Notes under the pieces: model-generated
The model's database searches: none
Seen by the model: the letters and a program-made list of their open reading frames with translations, nothing else
Told to the model about the DNA's origin: nothing
Program-made: the position numbers and the translations under genes
Assembly (NCBI GenBank): GCA_049325535.1
Contig: JBMOKY010000001.1
Span: 29,002 to 93,001 of the forward strand
Length of the DNA: 64,000 nucleotides
Direction: 5' to 3'
Origin: Patescibacteria group bacterium
GTDB taxonomy: Bacteria; Patescibacteriota; Patescibacteriia; UBA10025; JAHIVO01
Part shown: positions 11,751-44,782 of the stretch, one piece after another
Numbering within the stretch: the stretch's first letter is position 1
Layout of the letters: every line of letters starts with the position of its first letter

Positions 11751-11770
11751 GAGCGTATGCTAATTTTTTA

Positions 11771-14547: not shown

Positions 14548-14587
14548 CACAAAAAATTGATGCGCCGGCGTGGAGCCATCACGGGCA

Positions 14588-14881: not shown

Positions 14882-15614
14882 GCTGATTGTCGGTGAAAAT
14901 AAATAATGGCTCATTGCGTTTTTGCAGGAAGGCAATGAAGGCGACCGTAATAATCGCTTCGCCAATGCCGATCAAGGCATGAATACTGAGCATGGCCGGC
15001 AGTACCTGGCTCATCGATATGGTGCCGGCCAGGCCGAATTCGAGCGAAGCAGCCGTTGCTGCCAACATGACTGATAGCCAGGCAGTGATTGCCATAGCCA
15101 GCCAGGTGTATTTTTTGTGTCGGCGGTACAGGCGGAAGATATATTGAAATACATGCCAGCCACCCACGGTGCCGATAAGCCCCATGTTGATGATATTGGC
15201 ACCAAGGGCGACTAGGCCGCCATCACCAAAGACAAACGCCTGGATAGCCACGATCACGGTGATGACGATGAATCCAGCCCATGGCCCGAGAATGAGCGCA
15301 GCGAGTACGCCGCCCAAGAGGTGGCCGGACGTACCGCCGGCAATCGGGAAATTCATCATCTGTGCGGCGAAAATGAGTGCACCGACGGTGGCCATGCGCA
15401 GCATGAGTTGTCTGCCAGCGGCGCTGAACTGTGTTTGGCTGCTCATGTCCATCGATCCGACGTCAGGCGCGGTTGCCAGCCGTTTTTTTTGGACCATGAC
15501 GCGTTTGGTTACCGCGCTGCGGAGTTTGTGAGCGGCGACGGCGGCGAAAGCACCGGCGGTGCCGAGAAGCGGGCCAGCCACATTATTATTGAGAAATCCA
15601 TCGGGGATATGCAT
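14871..15614 (-). CDS. cbiM: Cobalt/nickel transport protein CbiM (ECF transporter substrate-capture subunit)
   Basis: N-terminus MHIPDGFL is the hallmark CbiM start. 247-aa polytopic membrane protein. Confidence 0.8.
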   Translation of the reverse strand: MHIPDGFLNNNVAGPLLGTAGAFAAVAAHKLRSAVTKRVMVQKKRLATAPDVGSMDMSSQTQFSAAGRQLMLRMATVGALIFAAQMMNFPIAGGTSGHLLGGVLAALILGPWAGFIVITVIVAIQAFVFGDGGLVALGANIINMGLIGTVGGWHVFQYIFRLYRRHKKYTWLAMAITAWLSVMLAATAASLEFGLAGTISMSQVLPAMLSIHALIGIGEAIITVAFIAFLQKRNEPLFIFTDNQHET

Positions 15615-15617
15615 TGT

Positions 15618-16298
15618 CTATGTTCGTTTGATAATTAATTCTTCTCGTGGCTGAGCGCGCTTGAGATTGGTGATGATGCGCCGTGCCACATACGCCGGAT
15701 CCATGTATCGGTCATACTCTGCCGGTTTCTGTTCATCAAAGAAATGTGTTCGCATGCCACCCGGGTAGACGCCGATGACGCTGATGTTTTGAGCGGCCGT
15801 TTCGAGCCTGAGTGATTTGGTGAACCCGGTGGCCGCGTATTTACTGGCGCAATATGCCGCTGAATTGGCGCGACCGGTGAGAGCACTGGTTGATAAAATA
15901 TTGATAATGACACCTCGTTTCCGTCGTTGCATATAAGGCAGCACTGCCTGTGTACCATAGATCACCCCGAATAGATTTACGTCCATCATGTGGCGCATCC
16001 GTCGAGTATTAATTTTTTCCACCGGACCATGGGGGATGCGTGTGCCGGCATTATTAATCCAAATATCAATATGACCAAAGCGTTTGACGGTCGTTTCTGC
16101 CAAGCGGTTCATGTCGCCCGCTTGAGTCACGTCGGCACGCACCCACCATTCACGAGTTGCGCCCAGGGGGTTTCGACGTGACCGATGTCGTGCGGCGCGA
16201 ACCACGCGAGCGCCTTCATAGAGCGCGGCTTCGGCCAGCGCCCGGCCGAGACCTTTGCTGGCGCCGGTGATGACGATGACTTTTTTATTGAGTTGCAT
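15618..16298 (-). CDS. SDR-family oxidoreductase
   Basis: TGASKGLGRALA cofactor-binding motif and YxxxK catalytic motif (YCASKYA). Confidence 0.85.
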   Translation of the reverse strand: MQLNKKVIVITGASKGLGRALAEAALYEGARVVRAARHRSRRNPLGATREWWVRADVTQAGDMNRLAETTVKRFGHIDIWINNAGTRIPHGPVEKINTRRMRHMMDVNLFGVIYGTQAVLPYMQRRKRGVIINILSTSALTGRANSAAYCASKYAATGFTKSLRLETAAQNISVIGVYPGGMRTHFFDEQKPAEYDRYMDPAYVARRIITNLKRAQPREELIIKRT

Positions 16299-18140: not shown

Positions 18141-18173
18141 ACATAGGTTATTATTTGTTATGCTTGCATAATG

Positions 18174-18250
18174 TGGTACCCCCGCTAGGAATTGAACCTA
18201 GATCCTCGGCTTAGAAGGCCGATGCTCTATCCGTTGAGCTACAGGGGCGC
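18174..18250 (-). tRNA. tRNA-Arg (anticodon TCT)
   Basis: Reverse complement GCGCCCCTGTAGCTCAACGGATAGAGCATCGGCCTTCTAAGCCGAGGATCTAGGTTCAATTCCTAGCGGGGGTACCA. Confidence 0.7.
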
Positions 18251-18416
18251 GCCTATATGAGGAGACAACCTCAGGTTTTCTCCTCATTACTTCTCTTTCC
18301 TGTGGTGTCGCTCAGCTCGGGACCGTATAACCCCAGCTTCGCGACGCTTCCTGTTCCTCCTCTACTCAGCTCGCTCACGCGAGCCTAGTTATTTGTAGTG
18401 AAATAAGCGGTTCTCG

Positions 18417-19274
18417 TCAATCTCGAGTGTAGCGGCGGGTGGTGGCAATGGTGGCATGCCCGAGCCGGGATTGGATGGTCTGTATGTCTTCGCCATCGAC
18501 CGCCAGTTTATGAGCATAGAGTTGACGCACGCGTTCGGGGGTAAGGTCAGGAGATAGATTGGCGGTCCGGGCGTATTTTTTTATAATACGCTCAATACTG
18601 CGCGGTGTTAATGGGGATGAGTTCTGGCGCCCGGCCTTATCATGCCGGACAAAGAGGGCCGGTGCGGCATCGGTGCGCTGATTGAGATATTGCCTGATGG
18701 CGAAGTGCGTTTGATGGGTCAGCTGGATGGTCCGAGTCGACCGACGCAATCCCCGGACAGCAATTGCTCGCCCGGTCGCCGGAATATCTACTCGTTTCAA
18801 TTCGACCAACTCGGACACTTTCATGCCCGTGGTAGCGAGCAGCTGCAGCAGTGCTGTATCCCGCAGTCGGATGATGGTGGGTGCGGCGGCGTTGGTCGCT
18901 GCGGCGAGCACACGGTTGATGATGCTCGGATGCAGCGTCCGAGATGGCAGGTGGTATGGCTCGAGGGCGACGTCATCCAGCGAGGCCGGTAACAATCCAA
19001 GTCGCGCCAGATAGGCAATGAACGCCCGGACCGCTATGAGGTGGTAGTTGATGCTGCTCGACATCATGGTGCTGCCACGGTTGGTATGGGTGCGCCTGAG
19101 CATGGCACGAAAAGTATCAATCGCCCGTTCGGTTATATCAGACGGCAGGTGGGCTCCGGTGGTCGACTGAAATCGGCTCAGGTAGAGCCGGTAATTTCGG
19201 ATGGTGCGGGGGGTGGAGCGGCTTACCATATCCTGTAAGAAAGATTCAATATAGTGCGTCAGATCGGTGGGCAT
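18417..19274 (-). CDS. xerC: Tyrosine recombinase XerC/XerD family
   Basis: 285 aa. C-terminal catalytic region with R...HxxR...Y (LGHATIATTRRYTRD). Confidence 0.8.
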   Translation of the reverse strand: MPTDLTHYIESFLQDMVSRSTPRTIRNYRLYLSRFQSTTGAHLPSDITERAIDTFRAMLRRTHTNRGSTMMSSSINYHLIAVRAFIAYLARLGLLPASLDDVALEPYHLPSRTLHPSIINRVLAAATNAAAPTIIRLRDTALLQLLATTGMKVSELVELKRVDIPATGRAIAVRGLRRSTRTIQLTHQTHFAIRQYLNQRTDAAPALFVRHDKAGRQNSSPLTPRSIERIIKKYARTANLSPDLTPERVRQLYAHKLAVDGEDIQTIQSRLGHATIATTRRYTRD

Positions 19275-19405
19275 AGCTATTTCATTTTACGACGCCATCC
19301 CCATCCAGTCAAAATATGGCCTGGGCGACCGAGATTGACATCGTGGCAGGTCAGTCGTATAGTCAGTATTCAGAAAATGTAAATATAGAACATCGACAAT
19401 AAACA

Positions 19406-20671
19406 TTGGAGGAATTCGTGAAGATCGATCCGAGTAAACGAATCGGCGGCGGGTACCGACGTGCCATCCAGATTTCTATCGAGGGCACAGCGCGTACGGT
19501 GGCTGCGCGTGGCGGACTCTTTCGGGGTGACCTGTATGTCATTCTGGAGGGCGTCCGGCAGCACATGGTCGCCATCCCCAACTGGGACAATATGGTCGCG
19601 CGCGCAGCGCTGGCATCTGGTGCCTATCGGCCGGATTATTATGACCCGAGCTGGTTGATGTACCAGGTATATACCAGCGTGTATGAAGCGCTTCGCTACA
19701 CATATTATGTGCTCGATCGGCAGTATGGCATTTCTTTCCATCACGGTGAAAAGGGTCGCTTGTCCGCTGCCCGTGAGGAACTGCTGGCGATCAATGAAAT
19801 TGCCGCTGGCCTCCGTCGTGGCAATGCGCAGGAGTTGGCTCCGGTTTTTTTCGAAAAAGCGCGGGCAATATTGGAGCAGATTGAAGAACACCCTCGTGAT
19901 CAACATAAGCGGGCCGCGCGGCGCATGAGCGTACCGCTGATGACCGTGTTTGACCGGACCGGCCGGGCAAATAGCACCGTCAAGATGGTGCAGGCGCTGG
20001 CCGCGCATGGCCAGCTGCGTCGCCGACAGGTGGCCATCAGCTGCATCGAGCCGGTGATTATCGCCCGACGGCAGACGCTCAAGTCGTTGATTGAGGAGAT
20101 GGAGCTCTTCTGGGAGGGTTTGTACGATTACCTCAATCGCTTGTTTGATCGACCGTATTGGGTTCGCGGTCAGTCGCGGTGCATGCAGCTGCTGATTGAT
20201 GCCATGGCTCGTCCATCGATGGTGCAGCATCTGACGATGTTTCACCAGGAGATCGGGCGGTACGATATCGCGCCATTTACCCAGACATCCTACCATGTCT
20301 ACCCCGAGCTGGGGCAGGTGCTGGAGCATATCCGGCGCGAGGAGTATGGCGCGGCGCGGAAGATTCTCGAGCGAATGTGGAATTCACTCAAGCTGCGGCA
20401 TATCCGCGCCGAACTGGAAGCAGCATTGTTGCCGTTTACGTGCTCACTGTATGGTGATCTGGTGGATCGCGCAGCCTATGATGCCATGATCTATAGCACC
20501 AAGCAGGCGCGGACCGCGCTGGCTCGAGTGGATGAATCGGGATTTGTCCACCCGGTGTCTCGGCACGCCATCGCGCAGTTGTCAGCCGCTCTCGAACTGT
20601 TGATACAGAAAACTATTACCAGCGGCCGTCAGGCCAAGGAACATATCAAAACAGCGCTCGGCGTGCTGTAA
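19406..20671 (+). CDS. Hypothetical protein (~420 aa), Arg-rich helical
   Basis: Long ORF with a non-ATG (TTG/GTG) start region and a GGAGG at 19408-19412. The opposite-strand ORF 19370..20329 is judged spurious. Confidence 0.5.
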   Translation: MEEFVKIDPSKRIGGGYRRAIQISIEGTARTVAARGGLFRGDLYVILEGVRQHMVAIPNWDNMVARAALASGAYRPDYYDPSWLMYQVYTSVYEALRYTYYVLDRQYGISFHHGEKGRLSAAREELLAINEIAAGLRRGNAQELAPVFFEKARAILEQIEEHPRDQHKRAARRMSVPLMTVFDRTGRANSTVKMVQALAAHGQLRRRQVAISCIEPVIIARRQTLKSLIEEMELFWEGLYDYLNRLFDRPYWVRGQSRCMQLLIDAMARPSMVQHLTMFHQEIGRYDIAPFTQTSYHVYPELGQVLEHIRREEYGAARKILERMWNSLKLRHIRAELEAALLPFTCSLYGDLVDRAAYDAMIYSTKQARTALARVDESGFVHPVSRHAIAQLSAALELLIQKTITSGRQAKEHIKTALGVL

Positions 20672-28672: not shown

Positions 28673-30667
28673 ATGTCTACCGCACTTATCATTGCACTGA
28701 CCGCGGCAGTCGTGGCCATCGGCTATGGACTGTTTTTGGCTCGCTGGATCATCCGCCAGCCTGCCGGATCGGAAACGATGCAGCATATTGCTAAAGCGAT
28801 CCAGCAGGGCGCCAGCGCCTACCTCAATCGCCAATATCGCACCGTGGCTATCATCGCGGTGGTGATTTTTGGTTTGCTAACCTGGCTTTTGGATCTGGAA
28901 ACCGGCATCGGATTCATAATTGGCGCGGTATTATCCGCACTGGCCGGATATATTGGCATGAATATATCGGTACGGGCAAATGTACGGACGGCTGAAGCCG
29001 CCAAACACGGACTAGCTCCGGCGCTTGCCGTCGCCGCTAAAGGCGGTGCCGTAACTGGATTGCTCGTAGTTGGCTTGGGATTGCTGGGGGTAGCCGGATA
29101 CTATGCGCTTACCAAGGATATATCAGCCTTAGTTGGTTTGGGTTTTGGTGGCAGTTTGATTTCAATATTTGCCCGATTGGGTGGTGGTATCTACACGAAA
29201 GCGGCTGACGTTGGCGCTGACTTAGTGGGAAAAGTTGAGGCCGGTATTCCCGAGGATGACCCACGGAATCCCGCGGTGATCGCGGACAACGTGGGTGATA
29301 ATGTCGGAGATTGCGCCGGTATGGCGGCGGATTTGTTTGAAACGTATGCGGTTACGGCAGTGGCGGCCATGCTGCTCGGGTCACTGACGTTCAGTGCTTT
29401 TGACAATGCATTACTATTGCCGTTGGTTATCGGCGGACTGTCCATCATCAGCTCCATCATCGGCGTTATTTTTATTCGTCTGGGTCGCACGCACAATATT
29501 ATGGGGGCGCTCTATAAGGGCTTGGCCGTTTCCGGCATCCTTTCCGCTGTTGCATTTTATCCTTTGGTACACTGGCTGATGGATGGTAATGGCCGCTATG
29601 CGACATCCAATCTTTATTTCACCGCATTGATCGGATTGGTCGTCACCGCACTGATCGTCGTGATTACCGAGTACTATACGTCGACGAAGTACGCGCCGGT
29701 ACAATCAATCGCTAAAAGTTCAGAGACAGGGCATGGTACCAACATCATCACCGGTTTGGCGGTCAGCATGAAATCGACCGCGCTCCCGGTCGTCGTTATC
29801 GCGGCCGGAATCCTCGGCGCCTATGCGCTGGCCGACGTGTACGGCATTGCCATCGCGGTGATGAGCATGCTGTCTCTTGCTGGGATCATTGTCACCATCG
29901 ATTCGTTCGGACCGATTACAGACAATGCCGGCGGGATTGCCGAGATGTCAAAATTGCCGGAAGACGTCCGGACGGTAACCGATGCGCTCGATGCGGTCGG
30001 CAATACCACCAAAGCCATCACCAAAGGGTATGCCATCGGTTCGGCTGGATTGGCGGCGGTGGTGCTGTTTGCCTCATACATCCAGGATTTGGCGGCGCAG
30101 CACAAATTTTTCGAATTCGCCCTCGATGATCCGAAGGTGATGGTGGGGCTGTTTATCGGCGGCTTGCTCCCGTATTTTTTCGGCGCCCAAGCCATGGAAG
30201 CGGTGGGCAAGGTGGCCGGCTATGTCGTCAACGAGGTGCGGCGCCAATTCAAGGAAAAGCCGGGCATCATGCAGGGTACGGAAAAGCCTGACTATGCTCG
30301 CACCGTCGATATCGTGACTAAAGGTGCTATCAAACAGATGATCGTCCCCGCATTGACGCCGGTATTGGCCCCGATTCTGGTCGGCTGGCTTCTTGGGCCG
30401 GTGGCACTGGGTGGGCTGCTGGTCGGCAGTATCGTCACCGGAATTTTTGTGGCGATATCCATGACGACCGGTGGTGCCGCATGGGACAATGCCAAAAAAT
30501 ACATCGAAGCAGGAAATCATGGTGGCAAGGGTTCCGAAGCCCACGCAGCCGCCGTAACCGGTGACACGGTTGGCGATCCATATAAAGACACAGCCGGTCC
30601 GGCCATCAATCCGATGATCAAAATTCTCAACATCGTTGCTTTGCTGATTATTGGCATTGTCATCTAA
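28673..30667 (+). CDS. hppA: Membrane-bound proton-translocating pyrophosphatase (H+-PPase)
   Basis: 664-aa polytopic protein with conserved GGG(I/L)[11 protein letters not shown](V)GKVE and DNVGDNVGD motifs. Confidence 0.9.
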
Positions 30668-30690: not shown

Positions 30691-31332
30691 ATGTATCGGT
30701 TCTTCTTCCGACTGTTGCGCCCACTTGGTCAGCGCGTCATCACGCCGGTGACGGGCAGGGAGAATATTCCAAAACACCCCCCGTATATTTTGGCTATGAA
30801 CCACGTGGGGTTTTTTGATGGTCCGGCCATTGCCATGACCATGCTGCCCTATCTGACTGAATCGCTTCAGTTTCTCACGCTTGATATCATGTGGCGCTTC
30901 TGGGGCGGTCCGTTTGCGACACGCTACTTTGGGATGGTACGGTTACAGCCGAATAATGTCCGTGGCTCATTGGATCGCATGATTGAACTAGTACGGGCGG
31001 GTAAGGCAGTCGGGATTTTTCCTGAAGGCGGCCGGAATACGCATCCTGACCAGCTATTGCTGGGGAAAACCGGTGCGATTCGGATGGCGCTCGCTACCGG
31101 CGCTCCGCTCATACCCGTCGGCATCCGCAACGCAATGGGCTTTTCCATGGCTAGTTCATTTGCCAGTTTTTTCCGGCCGGATCGCCACATCGCCATTCAT
31201 ATTGGCCGGCCGGTCGACCTGAGCGTTTATCGTAATCAGCCGATAACCCGTGAACTTTTGCATCGCGCCACTGATGATCTGATGCGTGCCATTGGTCGGT
31301 TAATTGGTGCCTCCATTACCCCACACACCTAG
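30691..31332 (+). CDS. 1-acyl-sn-glycerol-3-phosphate acyltransferase-like (LPLAT/PlsC family)
   Basis: NHVGFFDG (HxxxxD) and FPEGGRN motifs. Confidence 0.7.
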   Translation: MYRFFFRLLRPLGQRVITPVTGRENIPKHPPYILAMNHVGFFDGPAIAMTMLPYLTESLQFLTLDIMWRFWGGPFATRYFGMVRLQPNNVRGSLDRMIELVRAGKAVGIFPEGGRNTHPDQLLLGKTGAIRMALATGAPLIPVGIRNAMGFSMASSFASFFRPDRHIAIHIGRPVDLSVYRNQPITRELLHRATDDLMRAIGRLIGASITPHT

Positions 31333-31333
31333 T

Positions 31334-31996
31334 ATGTTTTATCCAATTTCACGTCGTACGCTATTTCCGCTGATCCGGTTTTTTATCAAAAAGACCATTG
31401 GTTTGGAAAATGTCCCACTCCGGGGACCGTATCTGATTGCGTGCAAACATCTGGGCCCGCTGGATGGTGTGTTTATCGGTGCCGTGCTACTGCCGTACCT
31501 CAGACAAAAAATATCCTTTATTTCTAATACGGCACCCTGGGGTTGGTTCTGGGAAAAGATTGTGGCTGAACAATGGGCAAATTGCATACCCTTCCACCGT
31601 GAAGCTCCCCATCTTTCGCTGGAGATTGCCGATGACCGCTTGAAGCAAGGCAAGATTGTCGGAATTTTTCCCGAGGGTATCATCCAGGATTATAATGAGG
31701 AGAAAATGCGAGCTAAAACCGGTACGGCGCGATTGGCGATTTGGAATCGGGTGCCGATCGTGCCCATCGGCATGGTCCACGATGTCTCTGTCCGACCCGA
31801 TTTGCCTAAATTACATCGTCGTCGTCAAGTAATTCGAAATATACTGTACAATCCTCATGCGCTGGAAATTCATATTGGCAAGCCGTTTGAATTGGCCGAG
31901 TACTACGGCCGCGAGATGACAAAAGATATGCTGATTGAAGCTACGGACATTATCATGGATCGAATTGACTCATTGACTCAAATTAATCGTAAATAA
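31334..31996 (+). CDS. Second LPLAT/PlsC-family acyltransferase
   Basis: CKHLGPLDG (HxxxxD variant) and FPEGIIQD motifs. Confidence 0.65.
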   Translation: MFYPISRRTLFPLIRFFIKKTIGLENVPLRGPYLIACKHLGPLDGVFIGAVLLPYLRQKISFISNTAPWGWFWEKIVAEQWANCIPFHREAPHLSLEIADDRLKQGKIVGIFPEGIIQDYNEEKMRAKTGTARLAIWNRVPIVPIGMVHDVSVRPDLPKLHRRRQVIRNILYNPHALEIHIGKPFELAEYYGREMTKDMLIEATDIIMDRIDSLTQINRK

Positions 31997-32009
31997 TAAC
32001 CAAACCATT

Positions 32010-33467
32010 ATGTCATACCTTTGGGATCGTATTACTCATATGTCGCCGGATGAGCAGCGGGCGCTGCAAAATAAGCGCATCGCACATTTTTTCCGGCACG
32101 AATTGCCGTACTCCCCTTTTTATCGGGCATTATTTGAAAAACACGGCATTGATTTTAAATCTATTCGTACGGTTGATGACGTGCAAAGAATTCCCTTCAC
32201 CACCAAGGCGGACATCGCCCCCACTCCTGACGATAAGGCAAAACCACGCACGTTCATGCTGCAGCCCGATGAGCATTTGATCAAGAAATATGCCCCGGCA
32301 TCCCTGCTGGCGAAGGTCATCTGGGGGAAGATTACTCGCCGAGATGTGAAACGGATGCTGGAGCGTCTCTACAAGCCGATCCACCTGCACTTCACCACCG
32401 GCCGCAGTGCTTTGCCAACGGCATTTGGCTACACTGAATCCGACATTGAGATTCTCAAGGAAGCCGGCGAACGGATGTTTAGCGTGGCCAATGTGTCACG
32501 TGATAAGGTGGCTATCAATGCATTCCCCTACGCTCCCCACCTCGCCTTTTGGCAAGCATACAACGCTTTGGTTCAGCTCGGTATTACTTCCCTGCAGACC
32601 GGCGGCGGAAAAGTCATGGGCTCGCAGAAAATTATGGACGCGCTGGAAGGAATGAAAGCCGGGCTCTTCATCTGCATTCCCGGATATGGGTATCATCTGT
32701 TGCGCGAGGCAGTGAAACAAAAGCGAAATTTTTCAGGACTCGAAACATTCATCACCGGCGGCGAGCGAGCGAGCGAAGGTATGCGGGTAAAAGTAAAATC
32801 CCTGCTGGCCCAGCTGGGCGCCCCGAATGTTCGTTTCTTAAGCACGTATGCTTTTACCGAAGCTAAGACCGCCTGGATCCAGTGCCACGAAAAATCGGGG
32901 TATCACCTGTATCCCGATTTGGGATATTTTGAGGTGATTGATAAAGACGGGAAACGAGTACCCGATGGCCAGCCGGGGGAATTGGTCTACACCAGTATTG
33001 GCTGGCGCGGATCAGTCGTGGTGCGGTATCGCACGGGCGACATGACCACGGGTATTGAGTACAGTCCCTGCCAGTACTGTGGGCGGACGGTTCCACGCAT
33101 CGGAGTTGATTTGCAGCGCACTACTGAAATCAAAGAATTTCATCTCACGAAGGTGAAAGGTGAATTAGTCAATCTGAATGATTTTTATCCTCTGCTATCC
33201 GGTTTGCCCGAAGTGGAAGAGTGGCAGGTGGAGATTTCCAAGAAAGACAATGACCCCCATGGGCTCGATGAAATCACGATTTACCTGGCGCCAAAAACAG
33301 GCGTTGACTTTGCTCAACTAGAGCGTACGGTCAATAAACTGGTGCACAATCAAATCTTTGTGACCGCCGCTATCCGTCAGAAGCCGCTTGATGAGTTGCT
33401 TCGCATGCTGGGTATGGAGACAGAATTAAAAGAAAAACGCATTGTCGACAATCGGCCAAAAGATTAG
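32010..33467 (+). CDS. Adenylate-forming enzyme of the phenylacetate-CoA ligase / coenzyme F390 synthetase (PaaK-like) family
   Basis: 485 aa. The N-terminal region and the TGGERASEG...YRTGD motif pattern are typical of PaaK-like acyl-adenylate ligases. Confidence 0.6.
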   Translation: MSYLWDRITHMSPDEQRALQNKRIAHFFRHELPYSPFYRALFEKHGIDFKSIRTVDDVQRIPFTTKADIAPTPDDKAKPRTFMLQPDEHLIKKYAPASLLAKVIWGKITRRDVKRMLERLYKPIHLHFTTGRSALPTAFGYTESDIEILKEAGERMFSVANVSRDKVAINAFPYAPHLAFWQAYNALVQLGITSLQTGGGKVMGSQKIMDALEGMKAGLFICIPGYGYHLLREAVKQKRNFSGLETFITGGERASEGMRVKVKSLLAQLGAPNVRFLSTYAFTEAKTAWIQCHEKSGYHLYPDLGYFEVIDKDGKRVPDGQPGELVYTSIGWRGSVVVRYRTGDMTTGIEYSPCQYCGRTVPRIGVDLQRTTEIKEFHLTKVKGELVNLNDFYPLLSGLPEVEEWQVEISKKDNDPHGLDEITIYLAPKTGVDFAQLERTVNKLVHNQIFVTAAIRQKPLDELLRMLGMETELKEKRIVDNRPKD

Positions 33468-34368
33468 TCAACCGCCACAGCGTGACATTGTTCTGGCATT
33501 TTCCGGTGGCGTGATGCAGGGCGTATTTGGCGCCGGGGTAGCAACCGCACTACAGGAGGCAAATCTGTATCCGCGCATCCATAGTGTGTATAGTTCGTCG
33601 GCCGGTGCTCACAATGCGGCGTATTTTTTGTCCCGACAGACACGACTCGGATCGTCAATTTATTATGAGGATTTGACCGGTCGTCAGTTCATCCATGTGG
33701 AGCGGTTGTGGCGATTTATCGGAGGTTGCGTGCGGCGGCTATGGGATCGGCGCGCCCCGATTCGTGCGCTGGCTGATTTAGATTACCTCATCACTGAGGT
33801 GGAACAGAAGCGAAAGCCGCTCGATATCGCGGCTATTGTTCGCCAGCCGATTCACTGGTGGGTGCACGGATATGATATTTCACGCCATAGCTGGACCTGG
33901 CTGGATGGCAAACGGGACACCTGGGCCACTCTCAAGGCGACCGCCACAGCGACGCCATACTATCCCCAGAGCGTGCCGTGTCAGGGGCGTTCAATTATTG
34001 ACGGCAGCGTCATTCGGAGCACACGGATGCTCGATGTGGCCCGGGACCATCCGGATAAAATTATACTATACATTCGCAATCGCCGTCGGACTCGGTGGGG
34101 CGTCGTCAGAGAGCTTCCGGGTCGCCTCCTTGATTCGATATTGGCAGCGATCATACACAATTGGCGAGTGGGTTGGGCGTTATGGATGACTGCTTTTGAC
34201 TTCCCCTTGCGTCGGCGGATAGAGGTCCTATCCAATGTCATCCTGATAGAAAATCAGCTGGGGTCAAATGCCATCGAGACGGATGCACAGGAGCTGCGCC
34301 GCATATATGCGCATGGGATCGCGGCCGGCCAGGCCGCACTGCAGCAATTATCTCGTTTCACATTTTGA
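33442..34368 (+). CDS. Patatin-like phospholipase/esterase
   Basis: Gly-rich oxyanion loop FSGGVMQGVFGAGV, nucleophile-elbow-like YSSSAGA, and DGSV Asp motif. Confidence 0.65.
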   Translation: MSTIGQKISQPPQRDIVLAFSGGVMQGVFGAGVATALQEANLYPRIHSVYSSSAGAHNAAYFLSRQTRLGSSIYYEDLTGRQFIHVERLWRFIGGCVRRLWDRRAPIRALADLDYLITEVEQKRKPLDIAAIVRQPIHWWVHGYDISRHSWTWLDGKRDTWATLKATATATPYYPQSVPCQGRSIIDGSVIRSTRMLDVARDHPDKIILYIRNRRRTRWGVVRELPGRLLDSILAAIIHNWRVGWALWMTAFDFPLRRRIEVLSNVILIENQLGSNAIETDAQELRRIYAHGIAAGQAALQQLSRFTF

Positions 34369-34425
34369 AATACCGGATAAACCTGATACAATGACGCTAC
34401 CATCGCGTCATTTTTTGCGTATCGT

Positions 34426-34968
34426 ATGTGGCTTTCTCTCATCCAAATCATCTGGTTTTTCTTTCCCGCAGGGGTAGCCAATATGGGTGCATCCATGTCC
34501 CGGTTTTTACCGGTACCGGCCCTGCCCGTCGATGCCGGCCGCACGTGGCGCGGAAAGCGTATCCTCGGTGACCATAAGACCTGGCGGGGCGTCATCACAG
34601 GTTTGATTGCCGGCACACTATTTTATTACCTCCAGCGGTGGTTATATCTGGCGTATGACTGGGCGCGGGAAATCAGCTTTATCGATTATGCCGATATGTC
34701 CATCTGGTTTCCTGTGCTTTTGGGGGCTGGCGCACTTATCGGTGATATGGTAAAAAGTATTGCCAAGCGGCAGTTCGGTATCGCGCCCGGGATATCCTGG
34801 ATGCCGTTTGACCAGATCGACTATGTGCTCGGGGCAGCTGCTCTGGTCAGTATCATTACGTTTCCCGGTTGGGGACGTATTGGTATAGCTATCGCGCTTG
34901 GTTTCACCTTTCACATCTTAGTTAATCGTATCGCCTACTTACTTCGTATCCAAAGAAATACATTATGA
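34426..34968 (+). CDS. CDP-archaeol synthase-like (CarS/DUF46 family) membrane protein
   Basis: GDHKTWRG and DMVKSIAKRQFGI motifs match the CarS/DUF46 CTP-transferase signature. 5 TM helices. Confidence 0.6.
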   Translation: MWLSLIQIIWFFFPAGVANMGASMSRFLPVPALPVDAGRTWRGKRILGDHKTWRGVITGLIAGTLFYYLQRWLYLAYDWAREISFIDYADMSIWFPVLLGAGALIGDMVKSIAKRQFGIAPGISWMPFDQIDYVLGAAALVSIITFPGWGRIGIAIALGFTFHILVNRIAYLLRIQRNTL

Positions 34969-38280: not shown

Positions 38281-38787
38281 ATGAAGATAGCGATTATTTC
38301 CGACACCCACGATAACTGGGCAAATATTGATAAAGTGCTGACTCATGTCAAAAAAGAAAAAGCCGACGCATTGATTCATTGCGGTGACGTCTGTGCGCCG
38401 ATCACGATGGTGCGTATCGCTGAAGGATTTGGCGGGCCTATACATCTCTGCATCGGCAATGTCGACGGTGACCCATTCCGCATGTTGCAAAAGGCTCACG
38501 ACGGGTCGGCTCCGAATGTGACTATCTATCCGGAAATTGGCGAGTTTGAGCTGGGAGGGAAAAAGTTTGCCATTAACCATTATCCTGACATCGCTTCCAA
38601 ATTAGCGAAATCAGGCGTATATGACATTGTGGTGTATGGGCATAACCATAAACCCTGGGAGGAGACGATTGGTCACACGCGACTAGTCAATCCAGGTAAT
38701 GTGGCGAATATGGTGTATGGGCCGACGTTTGCGTATTATGACACGAATGCCGATCAGCTTACCCTTATCCGGGTTGATGACCTATGA
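38281..38787 (+). CDS. YfcE/MJ0936-family metallophosphoesterase
   Basis: MKIAIISDTHDN...IHCGDV...GNVDG...GHNH motif series. Confidence 0.8.
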   Translation: MKIAIISDTHDNWANIDKVLTHVKKEKADALIHCGDVCAPITMVRIAEGFGGPIHLCIGNVDGDPFRMLQKAHDGSAPNVTIYPEIGEFELGGKKFAINHYPDIASKLAKSGVYDIVVYGHNHKPWEETIGHTRLVNPGNVANMVYGPTFAYYDTNADQLTLIRVDDL

Positions 38788-39557
38788 GTAGTTTTCGTAC
38801 CACCGCTGTCCGCGCCGCCCGATCGGCCGGTCATGAATTGATGCGCCATTTTCGCCATCTCACCACTCATCAGGTGAAAAAGAAGGGCCGCCATGATTTG
38901 GTCACCGAGGCGGATATGGCCGCGAACCGGGCTATCATTCGTACTATTCGGCGCCAATTTCCCGATCATGATTTCTTGAGTGAGGAGACCGGACTCGAGG
39001 ACAATCCTGGTGCATACCGTTGGACGATCGATCCGCTCGATGGCACGATGAATTTTGCTTTGCAATCCCCTCTTTTTTGCACTGCTATCGCCCTGCTGCA
39101 TGGGACCGAAATACGCCTCGGCGTGATTTATGCACCGTATATGAAGGAGCTGTATGTCGCCGAGGAAGGTAAAGGAGCCTGGTTAAACGGCATGCGGTTG
39201 CGGGTTTCCACTACTCGCGCGCTGTCTGATACATTGGTCCTCATCGGGCGGACGCACCGACGCCAGTCCCATGAAAATTTCGTGCGCCTGCAGCATCGGT
39301 TGGAGGATCGGGTATTCAACGTGCGCCGACTGGGGAGCGGATCTCTGGAGCTGGCCTATACGGCAGCAGGCCGGAGCGATGCCACCATCTTTACCCCTCC
39401 GGGCGTCAGTTTGTGGGATGCGCCGGCTGGGGTGCTGCTGGTACAGGAGGCGGGCGGTACGGTCACTGGATTTCATAATAAACCCTGGACGGCGCGCAGT
39501 ACCGGCCTCGTAGCTTCAAATGGCCACATTCACCGTTCATTGATTCGGGCACTGTGA
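38784..39557 (+). CDS. suhB: Inositol monophosphatase family protein
   Basis: DPLDGTMNF and WDAPAGVLLVQEAGG motifs. Confidence 0.8.
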   Translation: MSSFRTTAVRAARSAGHELMRHFRHLTTHQVKKKGRHDLVTEADMAANRAIIRTIRRQFPDHDFLSEETGLEDNPGAYRWTIDPLDGTMNFALQSPLFCTAIALLHGTEIRLGVIYAPYMKELYVAEEGKGAWLNGMRLRVSTTRALSDTLVLIGRTHRRQSHENFVRLQHRLEDRVFNVRRLGSGSLELAYTAAGRSDATIFTPPGVSLWDAPAGVLLVQEAGGTVTGFHNKPWTARSTGLVASNGHIHRSLIRAL

Positions 39558-39961
39558 TGCGGCTGATCACGATTTCGGGTACCGTCATATCCGGAGAACA
39601 GATTGGCGAACGCCAGGGGTATCCCACGGCAAATTTTAGCCGTCATGTATTGCGGCGGTCGGGCTTAGGCAATGGTATCTATATTGCCAGCATTACTATT
39701 GGTACCCGGTGGTATCGTGCCGTGGCGGTCATTGGAGTGCCTGGGGTACGCGTGCAGCGGCGGGGAAAAGTTGAGCTGTATATCATTGATTACCCGCGAC
39801 GGGAGCTCTATGGTCGACGGCTGCAATTCGTGGTGTATAAAAAAATTCGTCCGATTCGCCGGTATCGCCAATCGGCCGACCTGATGGCGCGTATTCGGGC
39901 GGATATCCGAGCGGCACGAAAATTTCACTATCCCTCACGCGCTACTCGGGGAAATATTTGA
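39554..39961 (+). CDS. Riboflavin kinase-like domain protein (flavokinase domain only)
   Basis: GTVISGEQIGERQGYPTANF resembles the RibF C-terminal flavokinase domain. No FAD-synthetase domain is present. Confidence 0.65.
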   Translation: MMRLITISGTVISGEQIGERQGYPTANFSRHVLRRSGLGNGIYIASITIGTRWYRAVAVIGVPGVRVQRRGKVELYIIDYPRRELYGRRLQFVVYKKIRPIRRYRQSADLMARIRADIRAARKFHYPSRATRGNI

Positions 39962-42281
39962 TCGGCCACTGTCGAAAGTCGCTGACGTACTGCAGGTCGC
40001 TGATTTTTATTTTTCCGATGTAGAGCTTCTTAAGCGTATCTTCCCCTTGCTCTTTGACCAGGCGCTCTATGATTTGGTTACCGGTAAAATAAACCGCATC
40101 TTTCGTAAATGCTCCGGGGACTCCGGTATCACTGAGCCCTCGCTTTACCCGCACACAGGTACGCCAGGCGCGATCGGGGGCAAGGCCGTAGACATCGACC
40201 ATCTGGTGGTAGAGATCGACGAAGGAGAGCTGCATGCCGAGATAAATGGCAATCACATTGTGCGCTGGTGTAAAAAATTTATCACCCAGGCTGACATGCA
40301 GCCGGTTTTGGTTGTAGATTGCCAGTCCTTCCTCAATCGTCAGATAGCCGGCAGTACCCTGTTCGAAAATGCGGTATTTCTGGAGCCGGCCGTTTTCCAG
40401 CCGGAAGATATGCGTCTCCACTTCATGGGCAATCAGGGCCTTGAGGCGGTTGATGCTAATGCGAGCGTTTTTATCGACGATGATGGTATTATTTTTTGTA
40501 ACCTGCATCCCAGCCGTGGCATCGGGTGATAGTTTAATTTTCCATTTGGTCAGTTTTTTTTCTAGCAAGTAGTTTTCCACCCGTTTGATGACGTCCTCAA
40601 TTTTCAGTATCTTACTGGAGTCAGCGACCATCGGTGTCTGTTTGACGAAGGTGAGCGCATCGCGGTATTGGCGCTCAGTCACCGTACCATACACCGCAGC
40701 AGAGCGTGTGGTCAGATCAGTTTCATCTACTCCTTCAGCAAGCTTCAGTTTATTGGTAATTTCGGTGATTTTATCCAGAAATAGCGGCATCAGCGGGTGA
40801 TCCACCTGGCGAGGGATCTTTTTCAGTTCGGTGCGCAGTGCCGCGAGCTGGTCGGTCGGTACGGTGTAGTTGAATTGCGGCGATACCGTCGGATGTTCCA
40901 TGAATCGCCGGTACTCTTCCTCGGTATTGGTTGGTTTGATTCGGGCTAGCAAATGAATCTGTTCATTGATCCGAGCCAGCCGCTGGTCAATGTTATAGAT
41001 AATTTTTTCAGCGATTGGCGTTGAGGCGCCTGGTGTGACGTTTGGTTTAGCGGCGGTTTGCCGCGTTGCATCGATCAGGAATTCCGTCAGAAATTTTCCC
41101 GACAGGATGAGCTGGTGTTTGGCATGTTCGATGGGCGCCTGGCGGAACGGCAGGCGAAGTTTTTTATCCTTAATACTGATATTCAGCAGTTTGGTATCGG
41201 GCGGAACCGCTATAGTTGATGACAGGACATTATGTTCGCTATGGGGGTCGATTTTCGCGCTGAGTGTGGTGATCCCGGGCAGATTGAGGACGTGGATTAA
41301 TTCATATAAACCGACGATTGGTTTGCTGGCCGGTTTGCTCGTTACTGGATTTTTTTCGGCAAGCACGCGGGTAAAAAGTGTCTGGCCGAGGCGCACTCCC
41401 TCACTGGGAGAGGCAACCTTGAGGTCCGCCACTTTTTCCAGGCGTTTGCGAAGCAGCGCTTGGTTTGATATTTGGATAGCCAATCCGGCTCGCGCATTCA
41501 GCTCCAATATTTTGATACCGGCGTTGGTCAGGGCAAGGTCAACGGCCAGATAGCCGATCTGGGTGTAGTACTGGGTTTTAGCCGCCGTCTGTAGGATCTC
41601 CTGCCATTGGGGCATGATAATTTTACGCACCAGATCACCGCCGGGTAGTTTGCGAATAAGCCGGTTTCCCTGGACGCCATAGGTCCCCCGCCCAGTCCCC
41701 AGGTCGATGCCCACGCCGATAGCTCCGAGGTGGAGGTTTGCTTTGCCGCTGGAGGCCGGGGTGGGAAGCCGGAGCATGGCGATGACCGGAACGTATTTGA
41801 ATATAATCACTCGAATATCCGGCAGCCCGGTCGAGCCGAGTGAGCGGAAATAATCGTGCGGTTCCAGTAATTCCTCAAAAAGAACCGTGTCGCCCAAACC
41901 GGAAATCGCATAGCGGCCGTCGAGGATGCTCAGGCTGTGCTCGTATAAATCAGCCCAGCGGTACTCTTTGCCGCCGGCGTCGGTATAGGTACCGTTCTTG
42001 GTATCCTGAACGGCGATGATGCCTTCGCCGCCGTATCCTTTGTTTGGTTTGATGACGAACCGCCGCGGTAGCCGGTCTGGTTTGAATGCGTGCAGCTCAG
42101 CGGAGCTGGAGATCTGGGCAAATAATTTTGCGACGCCGATCCCCCGCGCGTGGAGGAATCGCTTGGTATATAATTTGTCATCGGCAAGACGGCGGTTTTT
42201 TCGGGAATTGAAACGGGATACGTAGAGAAGGTTGCGGGCATTGATGCCCAATATTCCCGATACTTTGGCAAATACAGACAT
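39942..42281 (-). CDS. Fusion protein with an N-terminal RimK-like ATP-grasp ('alpha-L-glutamate ligase-related') domain and a C-terminal QEGLA-motif/DUF1704 domain
   Basis: N-terminal half has ATP-grasp features (FVIKPNKGYGGEGI, LAVDLALTNAGIKILELNARAGL). C-terminal half has ALIAHEVETHIFRLENG...TIEEGLAIY, i.e. the HExxH-like/QEGLA signature of the 'flavohemoglobin expression-modulating QEGLA motif' family. 779 aa. Confidence 0.7.
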   Translation of the reverse strand: MSVFAKVSGILGINARNLLYVSRFNSRKNRRLADDKLYTKRFLHARGIGVAKLFAQISSSAELHAFKPDRLPRRFVIKPNKGYGGEGIIAVQDTKNGTYTDAGGKEYRWADLYEHSLSILDGRYAISGLGDTVLFEELLEPHDYFRSLGSTGLPDIRVIIFKYVPVIAMLRLPTPASSGKANLHLGAIGVGIDLGTGRGTYGVQGNRLIRKLPGGDLVRKIIMPQWQEILQTAAKTQYYTQIGYLAVDLALTNAGIKILELNARAGLAIQISNQALLRKRLEKVADLKVASPSEGVRLGQTLFTRVLAEKNPVTSKPASKPIVGLYELIHVLNLPGITTLSAKIDPHSEHNVLSSTIAVPPDTKLLNISIKDKKLRLPFRQAPIEHAKHQLILSGKFLTEFLIDATRQTAAKPNVTPGASTPIAEKIIYNIDQRLARINEQIHLLARIKPTNTEEEYRRFMEHPTVSPQFNYTVPTDQLAALRTELKKIPRQVDHPLMPLFLDKITEITNKLKLAEGVDETDLTTRSAAVYGTVTERQYRDALTFVKQTPMVADSSKILKIEDVIKRVENYLLEKKLTKWKIKLSPDATAGMQVTKNNTIIVDKNARISINRLKALIAHEVETHIFRLENGRLQKYRIFEQGTAGYLTIEEGLAIYNQNRLHVSLGDKFFTPAHNVIAIYLGMQLSFVDLYHQMVDVYGLAPDRAWRTCVRVKRGLSDTGVPGAFTKDAVYFTGNQIIERLVKEQGEDTLKKLYIGKIKISDLQYVSDFRQWPIKYFPE

Positions 42282-42290
42282 ACGGTAGGG

Positions 42291-43847
42291 TTATTCCTCT
42301 TCTTCGATATCTTTTTCTTTAAATAGACTACGGAATCGTGCGTATTCCGTCCATCGCAAACCAGTGAATTTACCCAGCAGCACCATGCCAGCTAGTGGCA
42401 CGATAATCAATTCTGGCCATGATAGTACCAGATTGGTAAATGAGTCCCAGACGACGACGTAATAAGCACCAATGGATACCACCACCGTGGTAAACACTCC
42501 AAACAGCGCGGCACGGAGACCCTCTTCAGATTGGGCGGAAAGGAATTTGTCGGACATGGTGGACATCACCAGCATGGGAAAAATCGCCAGGGAAGCAGCC
42601 AGGGAGATACGGTAGAGCGACAGGATCCAAATCACCGCCAGAAATGATAAGCCGATGCTGGAGAGGATCAGGCTGGTTTTCGGGATGTAGAGCAGTCGGA
42701 ACCGGTTGAGCGCCAGCCGCAGGATGTAGCTGACAGCCACGACCACGATCAGCGTGCCGAGACCGACATAGATGCCTAGGATGAGGAATGATAGGGCAAT
42801 AACCAACGGCGTATAGATACCAAATGCGGTTATGCCGATGACTTGGCGCGCGAAGGTAATCAGAAAAGCAATAAATGGAACGGCGAGTATCAGATAAATC
42901 GTATTGGTGGGGATGCCCCGGGCGATGAAATTGGTGATAGCGTGTGACAGGAAAAAAACGTTTGATTTTTCACTGCGAGCATCGACGATGCGGTATTCGA
43001 TGGCGCGGCCCTCTAGGCTTGGCACCAGTTCCGTATTGTCTTTGGTTTCAAAAATGGGATTCAGTGCCTCGGGTCGGGTGAGAAGGATGAACGTCGGATT
43101 GATTACCCGGAATGACTGCTGTGCCAGATCCGCGGCGATGGACATGTTTTGTTCGGTGATGACAACTAGGAGTTTGCTTTGCAGGTTTATTTTTTTGCCC
43201 GTGTCCAGATTTTGCCAGTATCGCGTAAAAGACTGGAGTCCGGCAGCGGCATTGGTATAGAACAAGAGTCCATCCGCTTCGCGAATGAAATCCGCTTCCT
43301 GCGCGACCAGCGGCAGCAATTTTTCTTCGGTCAGGAAACCAGTGTCACCAGTTGGGGCAGTGAGGATTTTTAAGTACACTCCATTATTTGCCGCTTGTTC
43401 GACGATAGCATCCAGGTCCTGGACGATTTCCTGATCGGCAATCATCAGCAGTTTCGTGTCAAAGACAAATACTTCTTTTTCGCTGGTAACCACGGCGCCC
43501 CCCTGGGTGATGGTGAGTGTCACTTTATGGATGCCGGTGGCCGTGAATTCGTAGAGCAATTCCTGCCCAAATCGGGCTACCGGGCTGTCGGAAAAATCCC
43601 AACGGTATGATGCCTGTTCGTCGGTGGCCAGCTGGGAGTCGGTCGCGTCGAACAGCGCTTTTTTCCCGAATTCGATATAGTTATCCGAGGTAATTCGCGG
43701 GACGATCGTTCCCGGTTCAGCCGTCGGCTCTTCATTGGTGGGCGCGGGTGTGGTAATCGGAGTAATTTCTTCGGATTGCGCGTGCGTGTCCGACGCCGTG
43801 ATGGTCAGGCAGGTGAGGAGAATGCCGATAAGGAGTATTTTTTTCAT
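42291..43847 (-). CDS. Signal-peptide plus multi-TM protein of the '7TM domain fused to inactive transglutaminase' type
   Basis: Signal peptide MKKILLIGILLTCLTITASDTHA, an extracytoplasmic domain of about 330 aa, and 6-7 C-terminal TM helices. Conserved context between two ATP-grasp genes. The start overlaps the upstream gene by 4 nt (ATGA). Confidence 0.6.
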   Translation of the reverse strand: MKKILLIGILLTCLTITASDTHAQSEEITPITTPAPTNEEPTAEPGTIVPRITSDNYIEFGKKALFDATDSQLATDEQASYRWDFSDSPVARFGQELLYEFTATGIHKVTLTITQGGAVVTSEKEVFVFDTKLLMIADQEIVQDLDAIVEQAANNGVYLKILTAPTGDTGFLTEEKLLPLVAQEADFIREADGLLFYTNAAAGLQSFTRYWQNLDTGKKINLQSKLLVVITEQNMSIAADLAQQSFRVINPTFILLTRPEALNPIFETKDNTELVPSLEGRAIEYRIVDARSEKSNVFFLSHAITNFIARGIPTNTIYLILAVPFIAFLITFARQVIGITAFGIYTPLVIALSFLILGIYVGLGTLIVVVAVSYILRLALNRFRLLYIPKTSLILSSIGLSFLAVIWILSLYRISLAASLAIFPMLVMSTMSDKFLSAQSEEGLRAALFGVFTTVVVSIGAYYVVVWDSFTNLVLSWPELIIVPLAGMVLLGKFTGLRWTEYARFRSLFKEKDIEEEE

Positions 43848-44782
43848 ACTGCGTTTATGAATGTTTTGATGAGTCCGTGGTGAAATTCGCGGTAATGCAT
43901 ACACCAATGTTTGTATGGTAATCCCGGTTCGGGGTTTATTTCAAAAATATACGGCTTCCCCCGTTCAAATCCCATGTCGACGGCATAGATGCGGTTGCCA
44001 TACCGCTTCAGCCGGTTATCGATGCTGTGTACTAGCTGTTTGGCGCGTCGGGGGATGCGGGCAAGCGGTACTTGCCGGGCACGGGCGCCCTGGGCGACAT
44101 TGGCCACCATGAGGTGGGCGGGCGGGATACGGATAAACGATTGAACGATTGTGCCATCCATGACGGTGACGCGGAGGTCGTGACGTCCCCGATAGAGTCC
44201 TGGAATGCCGCCAGTCGTATCCACAAAGGTCTGTATCAGCCCGGGAAATTCCTTCACGGTACGCCGTATTTTTTCAGCACTGCCAATGATTACTCCGGTA
44301 CCGCCGGTACCATGAAGCGGTTTGTACACTATTTGATCGGTCGCTACCTTAGCGATTGCCGCCCTGAGTTGTTTTTTGTTCAGCACGCGGTAGGTCGGTT
44401 TCATGTAGCGATGGAAGGCCCGGTAGGTACCGTATTTATCATAGGTCAGCTGATAGAGCTTCCAGGGATTGACGACTGCCCAATCACGTCCGCCATTGCT
44501 CCGGAGTCGGTTTTTATTGTACACCACGCGGGCCGCGATGGGGCCATGATGCCCGACTAATGTACCGGTTTGGTAATGATAACCTCCTGAAAAGTTACCG
44601 TTGCCAATGTGGCGCTCCGCGCCGCGGACGTAGTAGACGGAAAAATGGGCTGATGCGGTTTTGAAAAAATCGAAATACGATTCTCTCCAGTGCGGTACGG
44701 TAAATGGATAGGAGCGAACCGTCCCGGATGGATGCAGAACGACGAGATTTGGTTTTCCATCGGTGAAGCGAGATGTATTCAT
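43844..44782 (-). CDS. Stand-alone ATP-grasp-fold ligase (RimK-like)
   Basis: KPLHGTGGTGVII and C-terminal IFEINPEPG are ATP-grasp features. First gene of the three-gene operon. Confidence 0.55.
   Translation of the reverse strand: MNTSRFTDGKPNLVVLHPSGTVRSYPFTVPHWRESYFDFFKTASAHFSVYYVRGAERHIGNGNFSGGYHYQTGTLVGHHGPIAARVVYNKNRLRSNGGRDWAVVNPWKLYQLTYDKYGTYRAFHRYMKPTYRVLNKKQLRAAIAKVATDQIVYKPLHGTGGTGVIIGSAEKIRRTVKEFPGLIQTFVDTTGGIPGLYRGRHDLRVTVMDGTIVQSFIRIPPAHLMVANVAQGARARQVPLARIPRRAKQLVHSIDNRLKRYGNRIYAVDMGFERGKPYIFEINPEPGLPYKHWCMHYREFHHGLIKTFINAV

Follow-up and report, generated by a model that had tools for sequence, protein, structure and literature searches.

A modular acyltransferase-ligase gene cluster of Patescibacteria with a candidate role in glycerolipid salvage and assembly

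Lysophospholipids are re-acylated in Escherichia coli by Aas/LplT. In this system, an acyltransferase of the PlsC family works together with an adenylate-forming enzyme that uses ATP to activate free fatty acid anew. Candidate Phyla Radiation bacteria (CPR, Patescibacteria) lack complete lipid synthesis and the enzymes that use acyl carrier protein (ACP), and lysolipids, which lipidomics suggests to be scavenged, are enriched in their membranes (PMC7242380). No mechanism of lipid uptake or breakdown has been identified in CPR (PMC11665869), and the question of where Patescibacteria get their membranes from and how they keep them up is recognised as open. We analysed a 64,000-nucleotide stretch of DNA from a Patescibacteria group bacterium (contig JBMOKY010000001.1, positions 29,002 to 93,001; hereafter the window), with a focus on five genes at positions 30691-34968 that encode two acyltransferases, a ligase, a patatin-like hydrolase and a CTP-transferase of the CarS family. 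Each of the five proteins belongs to a known family or is a variant of one, and public annotation already names them by homology. Literature searches found no paper that describes the module or gives CarS a CdsA-like role in Patescibacteria. We propose that these genes are the fullest version of a modular cluster for glycerolipid salvage and assembly that occurs in the lineages related to Kerfeldbacteria, a large branch of Patescibacteria.

The five open reading frames (ORFs) are consecutive and co-directional on the + strand, as a previous sequence-only reading of the window had reported, and the profile matches in Pfam and NCBIfam agreed with its five family assignments. They follow the gene of a membrane pyrophosphatase:

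28673..30667, + strand: membrane H+-translocating pyrophosphatase (H+-PPase; the orthologue in locus L001 has PF03030)
30691..31332, + strand: AT1, acyltransferase of the PlsC/LPLAT family, 213 aa (PF01553, 66 bits)
31334..31996, + strand: AT2, diverged acyltransferase of the PlsC family, 220 aa from the ATG (PF01553, 62 bits; alternative TTG start at 31304)
32010..33467, + strand: PaaK-fold adenylate-forming ligase (PF00501, 30.6 bits; PDB 2Y27, E 8e-25)
33442..34368, + strand: patatin-like acyl hydrolase, 308 aa, TTG start (PF01734, 36.8 bits)
34365..34419, + strand: promoter-like site with hairpin and T-run (consensus scan, a hint only)
34426..34968, + strand: CarS-family CTP-transferase, 180 aa (PF01864, 93.6 bits)

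The genes had also been said to overlap by 4-30 nt, which holds in part. There are two overlaps, both dependent on TTG starts. The one between AT1 and AT2 (29 nt) exists only with the TTG at 31304, and orthologue lengths agree with a start of AT2 at the ATG at 31334, 1 nt past the AT1 stop. The other (26 nt) lies between the ligase and the patatin gene, which starts with TTG. AT2 and the ligase are separated by a 13-nt gap, and the patatin and CarS genes by 57 nt, the only real intergenic gap of the cluster. The 4-nt overlap is that of the CarS stop with the start of the trigger factor gene (tig), outside the junctions of the five genes themselves. The 57-nt gap contains a promoter-like TTGAAA-16-TACAAT with a TG, and a hairpin with a T-run behind it overlaps this site. 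No other such elements occur within the cluster, and they are only a hint, given that consensus scans across the region did not rise above chance. The five genes stand in a long co-directional run, after NusA and the H+-PPase and before trigger factor and endonuclease IV, and the run continues onward. GC content is uniform across the region (~0.52), so the cluster is not a compositional island. A horizontally acquired island was considered and is ruled out by this uniform GC content together with the block synteny in relatives.

We identified 80 ligase loci in a scan of metagenomes, and used the 59 with roughly 56% identity or more to count the components of the core. In these related loci, one to four acyltransferase genes precede the ligase gene, usually between the genes of the H+-PPase and the trigger factor. 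At least one PlsC-type gene was found upstream of the ligase in all 38 loci with at least 3 kb of upstream sequence, with one, two, three and four copies in 10, 17, 10 and 1 loci, respectively. An acyltransferase directly adjoined the ligase in 41 of 47 loci, and this adjacency persists despite gene insertions on either side and changes in copy number. Where the upstream flank measured 5 kb or more, which was so in 46 ligase loci (both ligase tiers included), the H+-PPase was upstream of the core in 34. The other components were found in fewer loci: the patatin downstream of the ligase in 7/42, CarS downstream of the core in 7/42, and CarS upstream, between the H+-PPase and the acyltransferases, in 5/38. 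One locus is a tight operon of acyltransferase, ligase, patatin, CDP-alcohol transferase and CarS, whose transferase matched the models for archaetidylinositol-phosphate (AIP) and phosphatidylinositol-phosphate (PIP) synthases with 141 and 131 bits, both below the cut-offs. Another locus has the order H+-PPase, CDP-alcohol transferase, two acyltransferases, ligase. The cluster is thus modular, because the patatin, CarS and the CDP-alcohol transferase join the core in only some genomes: acyltransferase and ligase make up this core, the others are optional add-ons, and the window has the fullest version apart from the transferase. Hence, the notion of a compact island as a fixed five-gene unit does not survive the comparison.

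Metagenome contig QZGF01000293.1 encodes a ligase whose gene is 100% identical and has the gene order of the window, and the closest genome, in which CarS is 58% identical, shares the order of eight genes. Four more distant loci (L087-L090) retain the H+-PPase, one to three acyltransferases and the ligase, and vary in the genes that follow. In L087 the ligase directly precedes tig, with nothing between them. The ligase is followed by two ORFs without family match in L088, by a NUDIX gene in L089, and by patatin-like and CarS genes in L090.

Such conservation might reflect no functional unity at all. The genes could be neighbours only through the intact inheritance of a co-directional housekeeping block that extends from NusA to the flavokinase, with CarS and the patatin engaged in unrelated processes. 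The long-range synteny in relatives would fit this explanation, as would the terminator-like and promoter-like elements between the patatin and CarS genes, and the occurrence of patatin homologues elsewhere in other lineages. In two nearer genomes (L006 and L016), moreover, the H+-PPase directly abuts tig, and CarS stands alone, 2-4 kb away on the other strand. Yet the adjacency of acyltransferase and ligase survives insertions and copy-number changes, CarS has been inserted in-strand on either side of the core, and L094 and L122 have a CDP-alcohol transferase in the cluster. That CarS is linked independently with acyltransferases and CDP-alcohol transferases in Omnitrophota and Saccharibacteria also speaks against mere inheritance, which we regard as quite unlikely to explain the cluster as a whole.

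Judging from family memberships, intact catalytic motifs and gene-neighbourhood statistics, all of them shown here, we suggest, with moderate confidence, a salvage-and-assembly route for lipids or fatty acids and lysolipids that would feed CDP-diacylglycerol, with CarS acting like CdsA. The patatin-like hydrolase would free a fatty acid from imported or resident phospholipid. The PaaK-fold ligase would use ATP to form an acyl-adenylate, possibly handed to CoA or another carrier. AT1 and AT2 would then place acyl groups on glycerol-3-phosphate, lyso-phosphatidate or lysophospholipid, in the manner of a split Aas that supplies a Kennedy-type branch to CDP-diacylglycerol. The CarS-family enzyme would convert phosphatidate and CTP into a CDP-activated lipid, a task that elsewhere belongs to CdsA. 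The CDP-alcohol phosphatidyltransferase that uses this product would be encoded elsewhere; relatives have enzymes of the inositol-phosphate or PgsA type. The pyrophosphate from the ATP and CTP steps could, speculatively, feed the upstream H+-PPase; we regard the latter as conserved context and a possible pyrophosphate sink, and not as a proven part. Inferred in this scheme are all the substrates, which acyl carrier is used, which way the flux runs and that the lipid comes from a host. A scavenging and remodelling route with CDP-activation had been put forward from the sequence. The neighbourhoods in many genomes support it and it fits the literature (PMC7242380, PMC11665869), although the five genes are no fixed unit.

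The host bacterium probably cannot make its own fatty acids. We scanned 35 ORFs of the window with Pfam, and assigned the stretch from the H+-PPase to the ATP-grasp gene from an annotated syntenic locus. No Fab, PlsX/Y/B, CdsA, ACP or CDP-alcohol transferase was found among the ORFs of the window, whose 64 kb cannot show genome-wide absence; the sole related match was a generic short-chain dehydrogenase/reductase at 15618-16298. This bears out the earlier remark that the window lacks genes for de novo fatty-acid synthesis and for glycerol-3-phosphate acyltransferases, which says little about the genome. Regular expressions for the CdsA and ACP signatures matched nothing in the window nor in the ORFs of 90 loci, which represent a small fraction of each genome. 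Transporters of the MFS/LplT type were also absent from the window ORFs scanned.

The two acyltransferases have an intact HX4D catalytic block (HVGFFD in AT1, HLGPLD in AT2), and both match the acyltransferase domain of Aas models. They scored below the cut-off of the 1-acyl-glycerol-3-phosphate acyltransferase model (TIGR00530, 52.7 bits for AT1 and 40.1 for AT2, cut-off 102.95). AT1 is similar to TmPlsC (5KYM, E 6e-9). Both proteins are short, and lack the N-terminal two-helix anchor of TmPlsC, since their alignment with it begins only at chain residue 65. They belong to two distinct orthologue groups, each of which keeps its own FPEG pattern (FPEGxRN in the AT1 group, FPEGIIQ in the AT2 group). 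The AT1 group is represented in every close relative, and the AT2 clade is absent in L010 and L090. In PlsC-type enzymes, the arginine after FPEG binds the phosphate of the acceptor. Block III is FPEGGRN in AT1 and FPEGIIQ, without this arginine, in AT2. The acceptors of the two enzymes are therefore likely to differ.

The ligase is of the PaaK type and belongs to a Patescibacteria-specific family. Its AlphaFold2 model (pLDDT 88) has the two-domain PaaK fold, and Foldseek aligned it with PaaK1 (2Y27) at template-modelling (TM) scores of 0.77/0.87. The TE, RYRTGD and C-terminal lysine motifs are kept, and are invariant in 44-118 homologues. The P-loop is a variant, HxHFTTGRSxxP, of which FTTGRSxxP is invariant in the family and replaces the canonical SSGTTGxP. 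Some 40 extra residues follow residue 70, and three cysteines (Cys292, Cys354, Cys357) are invariant. Homologue sequences in the 120 clusters listed were 58-99% identical over the full length, and all of the listed clusters with a source name were labelled Patescibacteria, Kerfeldbacteria, Parcubacteria or "bacterium". The models for phenylacetate-CoA ligases were matched well below their cut-offs (TIGR02155, 98.5 vs 646 bits; NF041878, 134.6 vs 700).

Other family relationships of the ligase suggest a different substrate. The best NCBIfam matches are the flexirubin ligase FlxY (155 bits, below the cut-off of 520) and the DVU_1553 family, so that flexirubin- and aryl-polyene-type ligases are the families matched best, and all close solved structures are small-acid ligases of the PaaK family, among which NatL2, AjiA1 and ClxA make esters or amides straight from the adenylate. 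The ligase could thus activate a small aryl or branched-chain acid, which the acyltransferases would attach to a glycerol-phosphate or lipid anchor to make a specialised envelope lipid instead of bulk phospholipid. This would recall the pathways for flexirubin and aryl polyenes, whose gene clusters also contain PlsC-type acyltransferases. We found no ketosynthase, ACP or other polyketide gene near the core in the contexts inspected, and conservation of the ligase is very strong even though the genomes are reduced. The repeated recruitment of CarS, the CDP-alcohol transferase and the patatin by the core points instead to phospholipid metabolism, and we consider such a specialised-lipid pathway unlikely. 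That the ligase re-activates an acyl chain, as the sequence-only reading had it, is nevertheless supported only for the chemistry: the protein belongs to an adenylate-forming family, whereas a fatty acid as its substrate is what we infer from gene context, with solved relatives that take small acids.

A more distant branch of this family has a different context. At L138, L159-L171 and the remaining ligase loci of 48-54% identity, neither an acyltransferase nor the H+-PPase nor tig neighbours the ligase. A DUF59/PaaD-like gene (family named by eye) is immediately upstream of the ligase and divergent from it in seven loci, and the other conserved neighbours are PCMT-like and endonuclease V-like genes, which were also named by eye.

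The patatin-like protein belongs to a small and fast-evolving family (34 members were matched in our search). It scored 36.8 bits with PF01734, above the cut-off of 27.7, and had a weak match with DUF6363. Ser53 is in a SSSAG motif and Asp187 in a DGS motif. Ser53, Gly55 and Asp187 are invariant in 17 homologues, and the Ser-Asp dyad is therefore intact. By eye, and with no predictor run, we recognised no signal peptide, so the protein would act inside the cell and not directly on host membranes. The earlier suggestion that host-derived lipid is hydrolysed is to be modified accordingly. We also considered an anti-phage defence system with a patatin effector, and rejected it: none of the five proteins had a match in PADLOC, and we saw no cyclase or other defence partner nearby.

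The assignment of the fifth protein to CarS and not to CdsA, for which the sequence-only reading had asked for a profile check, is clear. PF01864 matched with 93.6 bits (cut-off 22) over positions 5-171 of the 175 of the model, whereas the CdsA-type PF01148 gave only a partial match of 27 bits (positions 169-230 of 264). The score with the equivalog model NF003114 was 119 bits, below the cut-off of 148. The sequence is similar to that of ApCarS (5GUF, E 5e-11), and the AlphaFold2 model (pLDDT 95), which has five long helices, aligned with 5GUF at TM scores of 0.69/0.78 (root-mean-square deviation 2.7) and with TmCdsA at 0.51. The motifs GDHKTWRG and DMVKSIAKRQFGI are present as had been claimed. 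Alignment with 5GUF matches the motifs GDxKTxxG, GDMxxSxxKR and DQxD, which do not vary among 36 homologues, the invariant residues being D36, K51, T52, R54, G55, D107, K114, R115 and D129. CdsA enzymes carry the CDS signature HGGxxDRxD, and this pattern was not found in the CarS-like protein.

Genes of this type are common in Patescibacteria and not rare in bacteria, contrary to what had been supposed; what is unusual is their apparent role. We found CarS relatives in at least 527 stretches of GTDB species genomes, and analysed the context of the best 80 of these. Many of the best 80 are from Patescibacteria (Saccharibacteria, Kerfeldbacteria, Falkowbacteria, Peribacteria, Paceibacterota), and others are from DPANN archaea, Omnitrophota, Binatia, and delta-proteobacterial metagenome-assembled genomes (MAGs). 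A CDP-alcohol phosphatidyltransferase was encoded within 2.5 kb of CarS in 42 of the 80 loci (within 300 nt in 22), and only two were found in the remaining 790 kb of flanking sequence. Four loci of the Omnitrophota type have the order CDP-alcohol transferase, CarS and two acyltransferases. For example, positions 8249-12470 of L052 (Omnitrophota, Tantalella) encode a myo-inositol-1-phosphate synthase, an AIP/PIP-synthase-like transferase, the CarS-like protein, two PlsC-type acyltransferases and GtrA. L076 (Saccharibacteria, 8473-14979) has the order CarS-like gene, PHP phosphoesterase, AIP-synthase-like transferase; on the other strand, three acyltransferases come before an NMO-family (PF03060) gene that we take to be FabK-like, an ornithine cyclodeaminase gene, and one with a FabA domain (FabZ-like). 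CarS is near two or three acyltransferases in another Patescibacteria genome besides Saccharibacteria. In L034 (939-4678), a Binatia-like MAG that groups with Binatia in the CarS tree, an Aas-type fusion (PF01553 and PF00501, 763 bits with the Aas model) is 1 kb upstream of the CarS-like gene. Bacterial genes of the CarS family thus sit between ester-forming acyltransferases and CDP-alcohol transferases, the position in the pathway that is normally that of CdsA.

Some of these loci deserve mention in their own right. The operon of L052 looks like a bacterial inositol-phospholipid pathway that uses archaeal-type head-group enzymes. The genes of L076 suggest that some Saccharibacteria may retain parts of type II fatty-acid synthesis, and L004 has the same trio of transferase, PHP and CarS genes. 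Several "binchicken" MAGs (e.g., L008, L011, L017) are titled Gammaproteobacteria, Enterobacteriaceae or Methanosarcinales; these labels look unreliable, because the gene order and the CarS sequences group with Patescibacteria or DPANN.

The CarS-like protein might also be a true CDP-archaeol-type synthase that acts on isoprenoid ether lipids (e.g., those of archaeal partners, acquired by scavenging) or on some other polyprenyl phosphate, and not on diacyl phosphatidate. It is a full-length member of CarS by sequence and fold, and the partner transferases in relatives score best with the AIP synthase. In a neighbour-joining tree of CarS, which is rough, being made from a short protein and without support values, the sequences of Patescibacteria and DPANN interleave. 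The characterised AfCarS is itself selective for digeranylgeranylglyceryl phosphate (DGGGP) (PMC9385802). On the other hand, the CarS gene is repeatedly beside PlsC-type, ester-forming acyltransferases in bacteria, the window ORFs scanned include no prenyltransferase of the PcrB or UbiA type, and the protein is below the cut-off of the NCBIfam equivalog. We therefore hold a function in ether-lipid synthesis to be very unlikely.

Several observations weigh against the salvage route itself. The solved structures closest to the ligase are of enzymes that use small aryl or branched acids (phenylacetate, 2-hydroxyisobutyrate, hydroxy- or amino-benzoates). In Foldseek, its structure is far from those of long-chain acyl-CoA synthetases (TM ~0.4), and its P-loop is non-canonical. 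The ligases at 48-54% identity have no acyltransferase or other lipid-related neighbours. The gene order from NusA to the flavokinase is conserved by descent in the clade, so part of the linkage may be inherited and not selected. The Pfam scans found no CDP-alcohol transferase in the window. Two distant patatin homologues that we examined are away from lipid genes, next to NifU in both cases, and also to superoxide dismutase and peroxiredoxin in one. Finally, AfCarS, with its preference for DGGGP over phosphatidate, did not complement an E. coli cdsA mutant (PMC9385802).

A bolder version of the salvage route can be formulated, which we think possible but doubtful. In this version, a large branch of Patescibacteria would need no ACP, CdsA or PlsX/Y to build membranes of ester lipids out of the fatty acids that it scavenges. 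The ligase would give an acyl-adenylate or an unusual thioester to the short PlsC-type enzymes, and an archaeal-type CarS and an AIP-synthase-like transferase would have switched to diacyl substrates, with a head-group toolkit common to DPANN. If so, two radiations of ultra-small symbionts, on either side of the lipid divide, would use the same toolkit for head groups. Should diacyl phosphatidate prove to be a substrate of the CarS-type enzyme, the split between CarS and CdsA would be no strict marker of the divide between archaeal and bacterial lipids. The cluster supplies concrete, clonable candidates for the question of how these membranes are obtained, namely the acyltransferase paralogues, the conserved and unusual ligase, the patatin-like hydrolase and the CarS-type CTP-transferase, and makes it testable by biochemistry and complementation.

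The rest of the window is typical of Patescibacteria in its gene content (type IV pilus PilM, anaerobic ribonucleotide reductase, membrane H+-PPase), and the sequences most closely related to its proteins bear the labels Patescibacteria, Kerfeldbacteria or Parcubacteria. A bacterial 16S rRNA gene is encoded on the minus strand (57138-58654). It is followed by tRNA-Ile and tRNA-Phe genes on the same strand (56403-58654 altogether), and no 23S rRNA was found in the 64 kb, so the rRNA genes appear unlinked. Three ORFs of 779, 538 and 312 aa on the minus strand (39942-44782) are syntenic with L001 genes that encode ATP-grasp and MATCAP domains, a PKD and a 7TM transglutaminase-like domain, and a RimK-like ATP-grasp. 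By this synteny with L001, they look like a three-gene peptide-ligase/transglutaminase system. A tyrosine integrase (18417-19274, minus strand) beside a tRNA-Arg (18174-18248) is flanked by large ORFs without Pfam match (16314-18140 and 19370-20329), and the region 16314-20329 may be an integrated element. Three further ORFs of 529-557 aa (2088-3716, 9393-10982 and 52413-54086) had no Pfam match at E up to 0.001.

Several described systems are close to the proposed salvage route. The proposed coupling of a PlsC-type acyltransferase to an adenylate-forming enzyme is that of Aas/LplT. Here, however, the two activities are in separate genes, the ligase is of the PaaK type and not of the FadD type, there are up to four acyltransferase paralogues, and neither an ACP motif nor an LplT-like transporter was found in the window; the likeness is one of working, not of membership. 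With the PaaK-family ligases (PaaK1 2Y27, FlxY, NatL2, AjiA1, ClxA) the ligase shares the fold and the TE, RYRTGD and C-terminal lysine motifs. It differs from them by the FTTGRS P-loop, the insertion of about 40 residues, the cysteine triad, the restriction to Patescibacteria among the homologues listed, and the fixed position beside PlsC-type acyltransferases.

The operons for inositol phospholipids, which combine a myo-inositol-1-phosphate synthase with a PIP or AIP synthase, are comparable through the relatives of the cluster: their CarS-adjacent transferase scores best as an AIP/PIP synthase, and L052 has the myo-inositol-1-phosphate synthase. The window lacks such a transferase and has only an IMPase-family gene (38784-39557), four genes downstream of tig, in a position conserved in relatives. 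It matched inositol-1-monophosphatase with 166 bits and HisN with 172 bits, both below the cut-offs. This gene could relate to an inositol head group, because relatives carry AIP/PIP-synthase-like transferases.

Like the CDP-archaeol synthases (ApCarS 5GUF, AfCarS), of whose Pfam family it is a member, the CarS-like protein has the same length, folds into five helices and keeps the polar motifs. Unlike these, it has a bacterial host, scores below the NCBIfam equivalog cut-off, and neighbours ester-forming acyltransferases instead of geranylgeranylglyceryl phosphate or DGGGP synthases. We predict that it takes diacyl phosphatidate, a poor substrate for characterised CarS (PMC9385802). CdsA (TmCdsA 4Q2E) is larger, with about 260 aa and nine helices against 180 aa and five, and has N-terminal and dimerisation domains that are missing here. 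The catalytic cores of the two are distantly homologous, as indicated by the partial PF01148 match and the TM score of 0.51, and the reaction proposed for the CarS-like protein would be that of CdsA, at the same position in the pathway, after the acyltransferases and before the CDP-alcohol phosphatidyltransferase.

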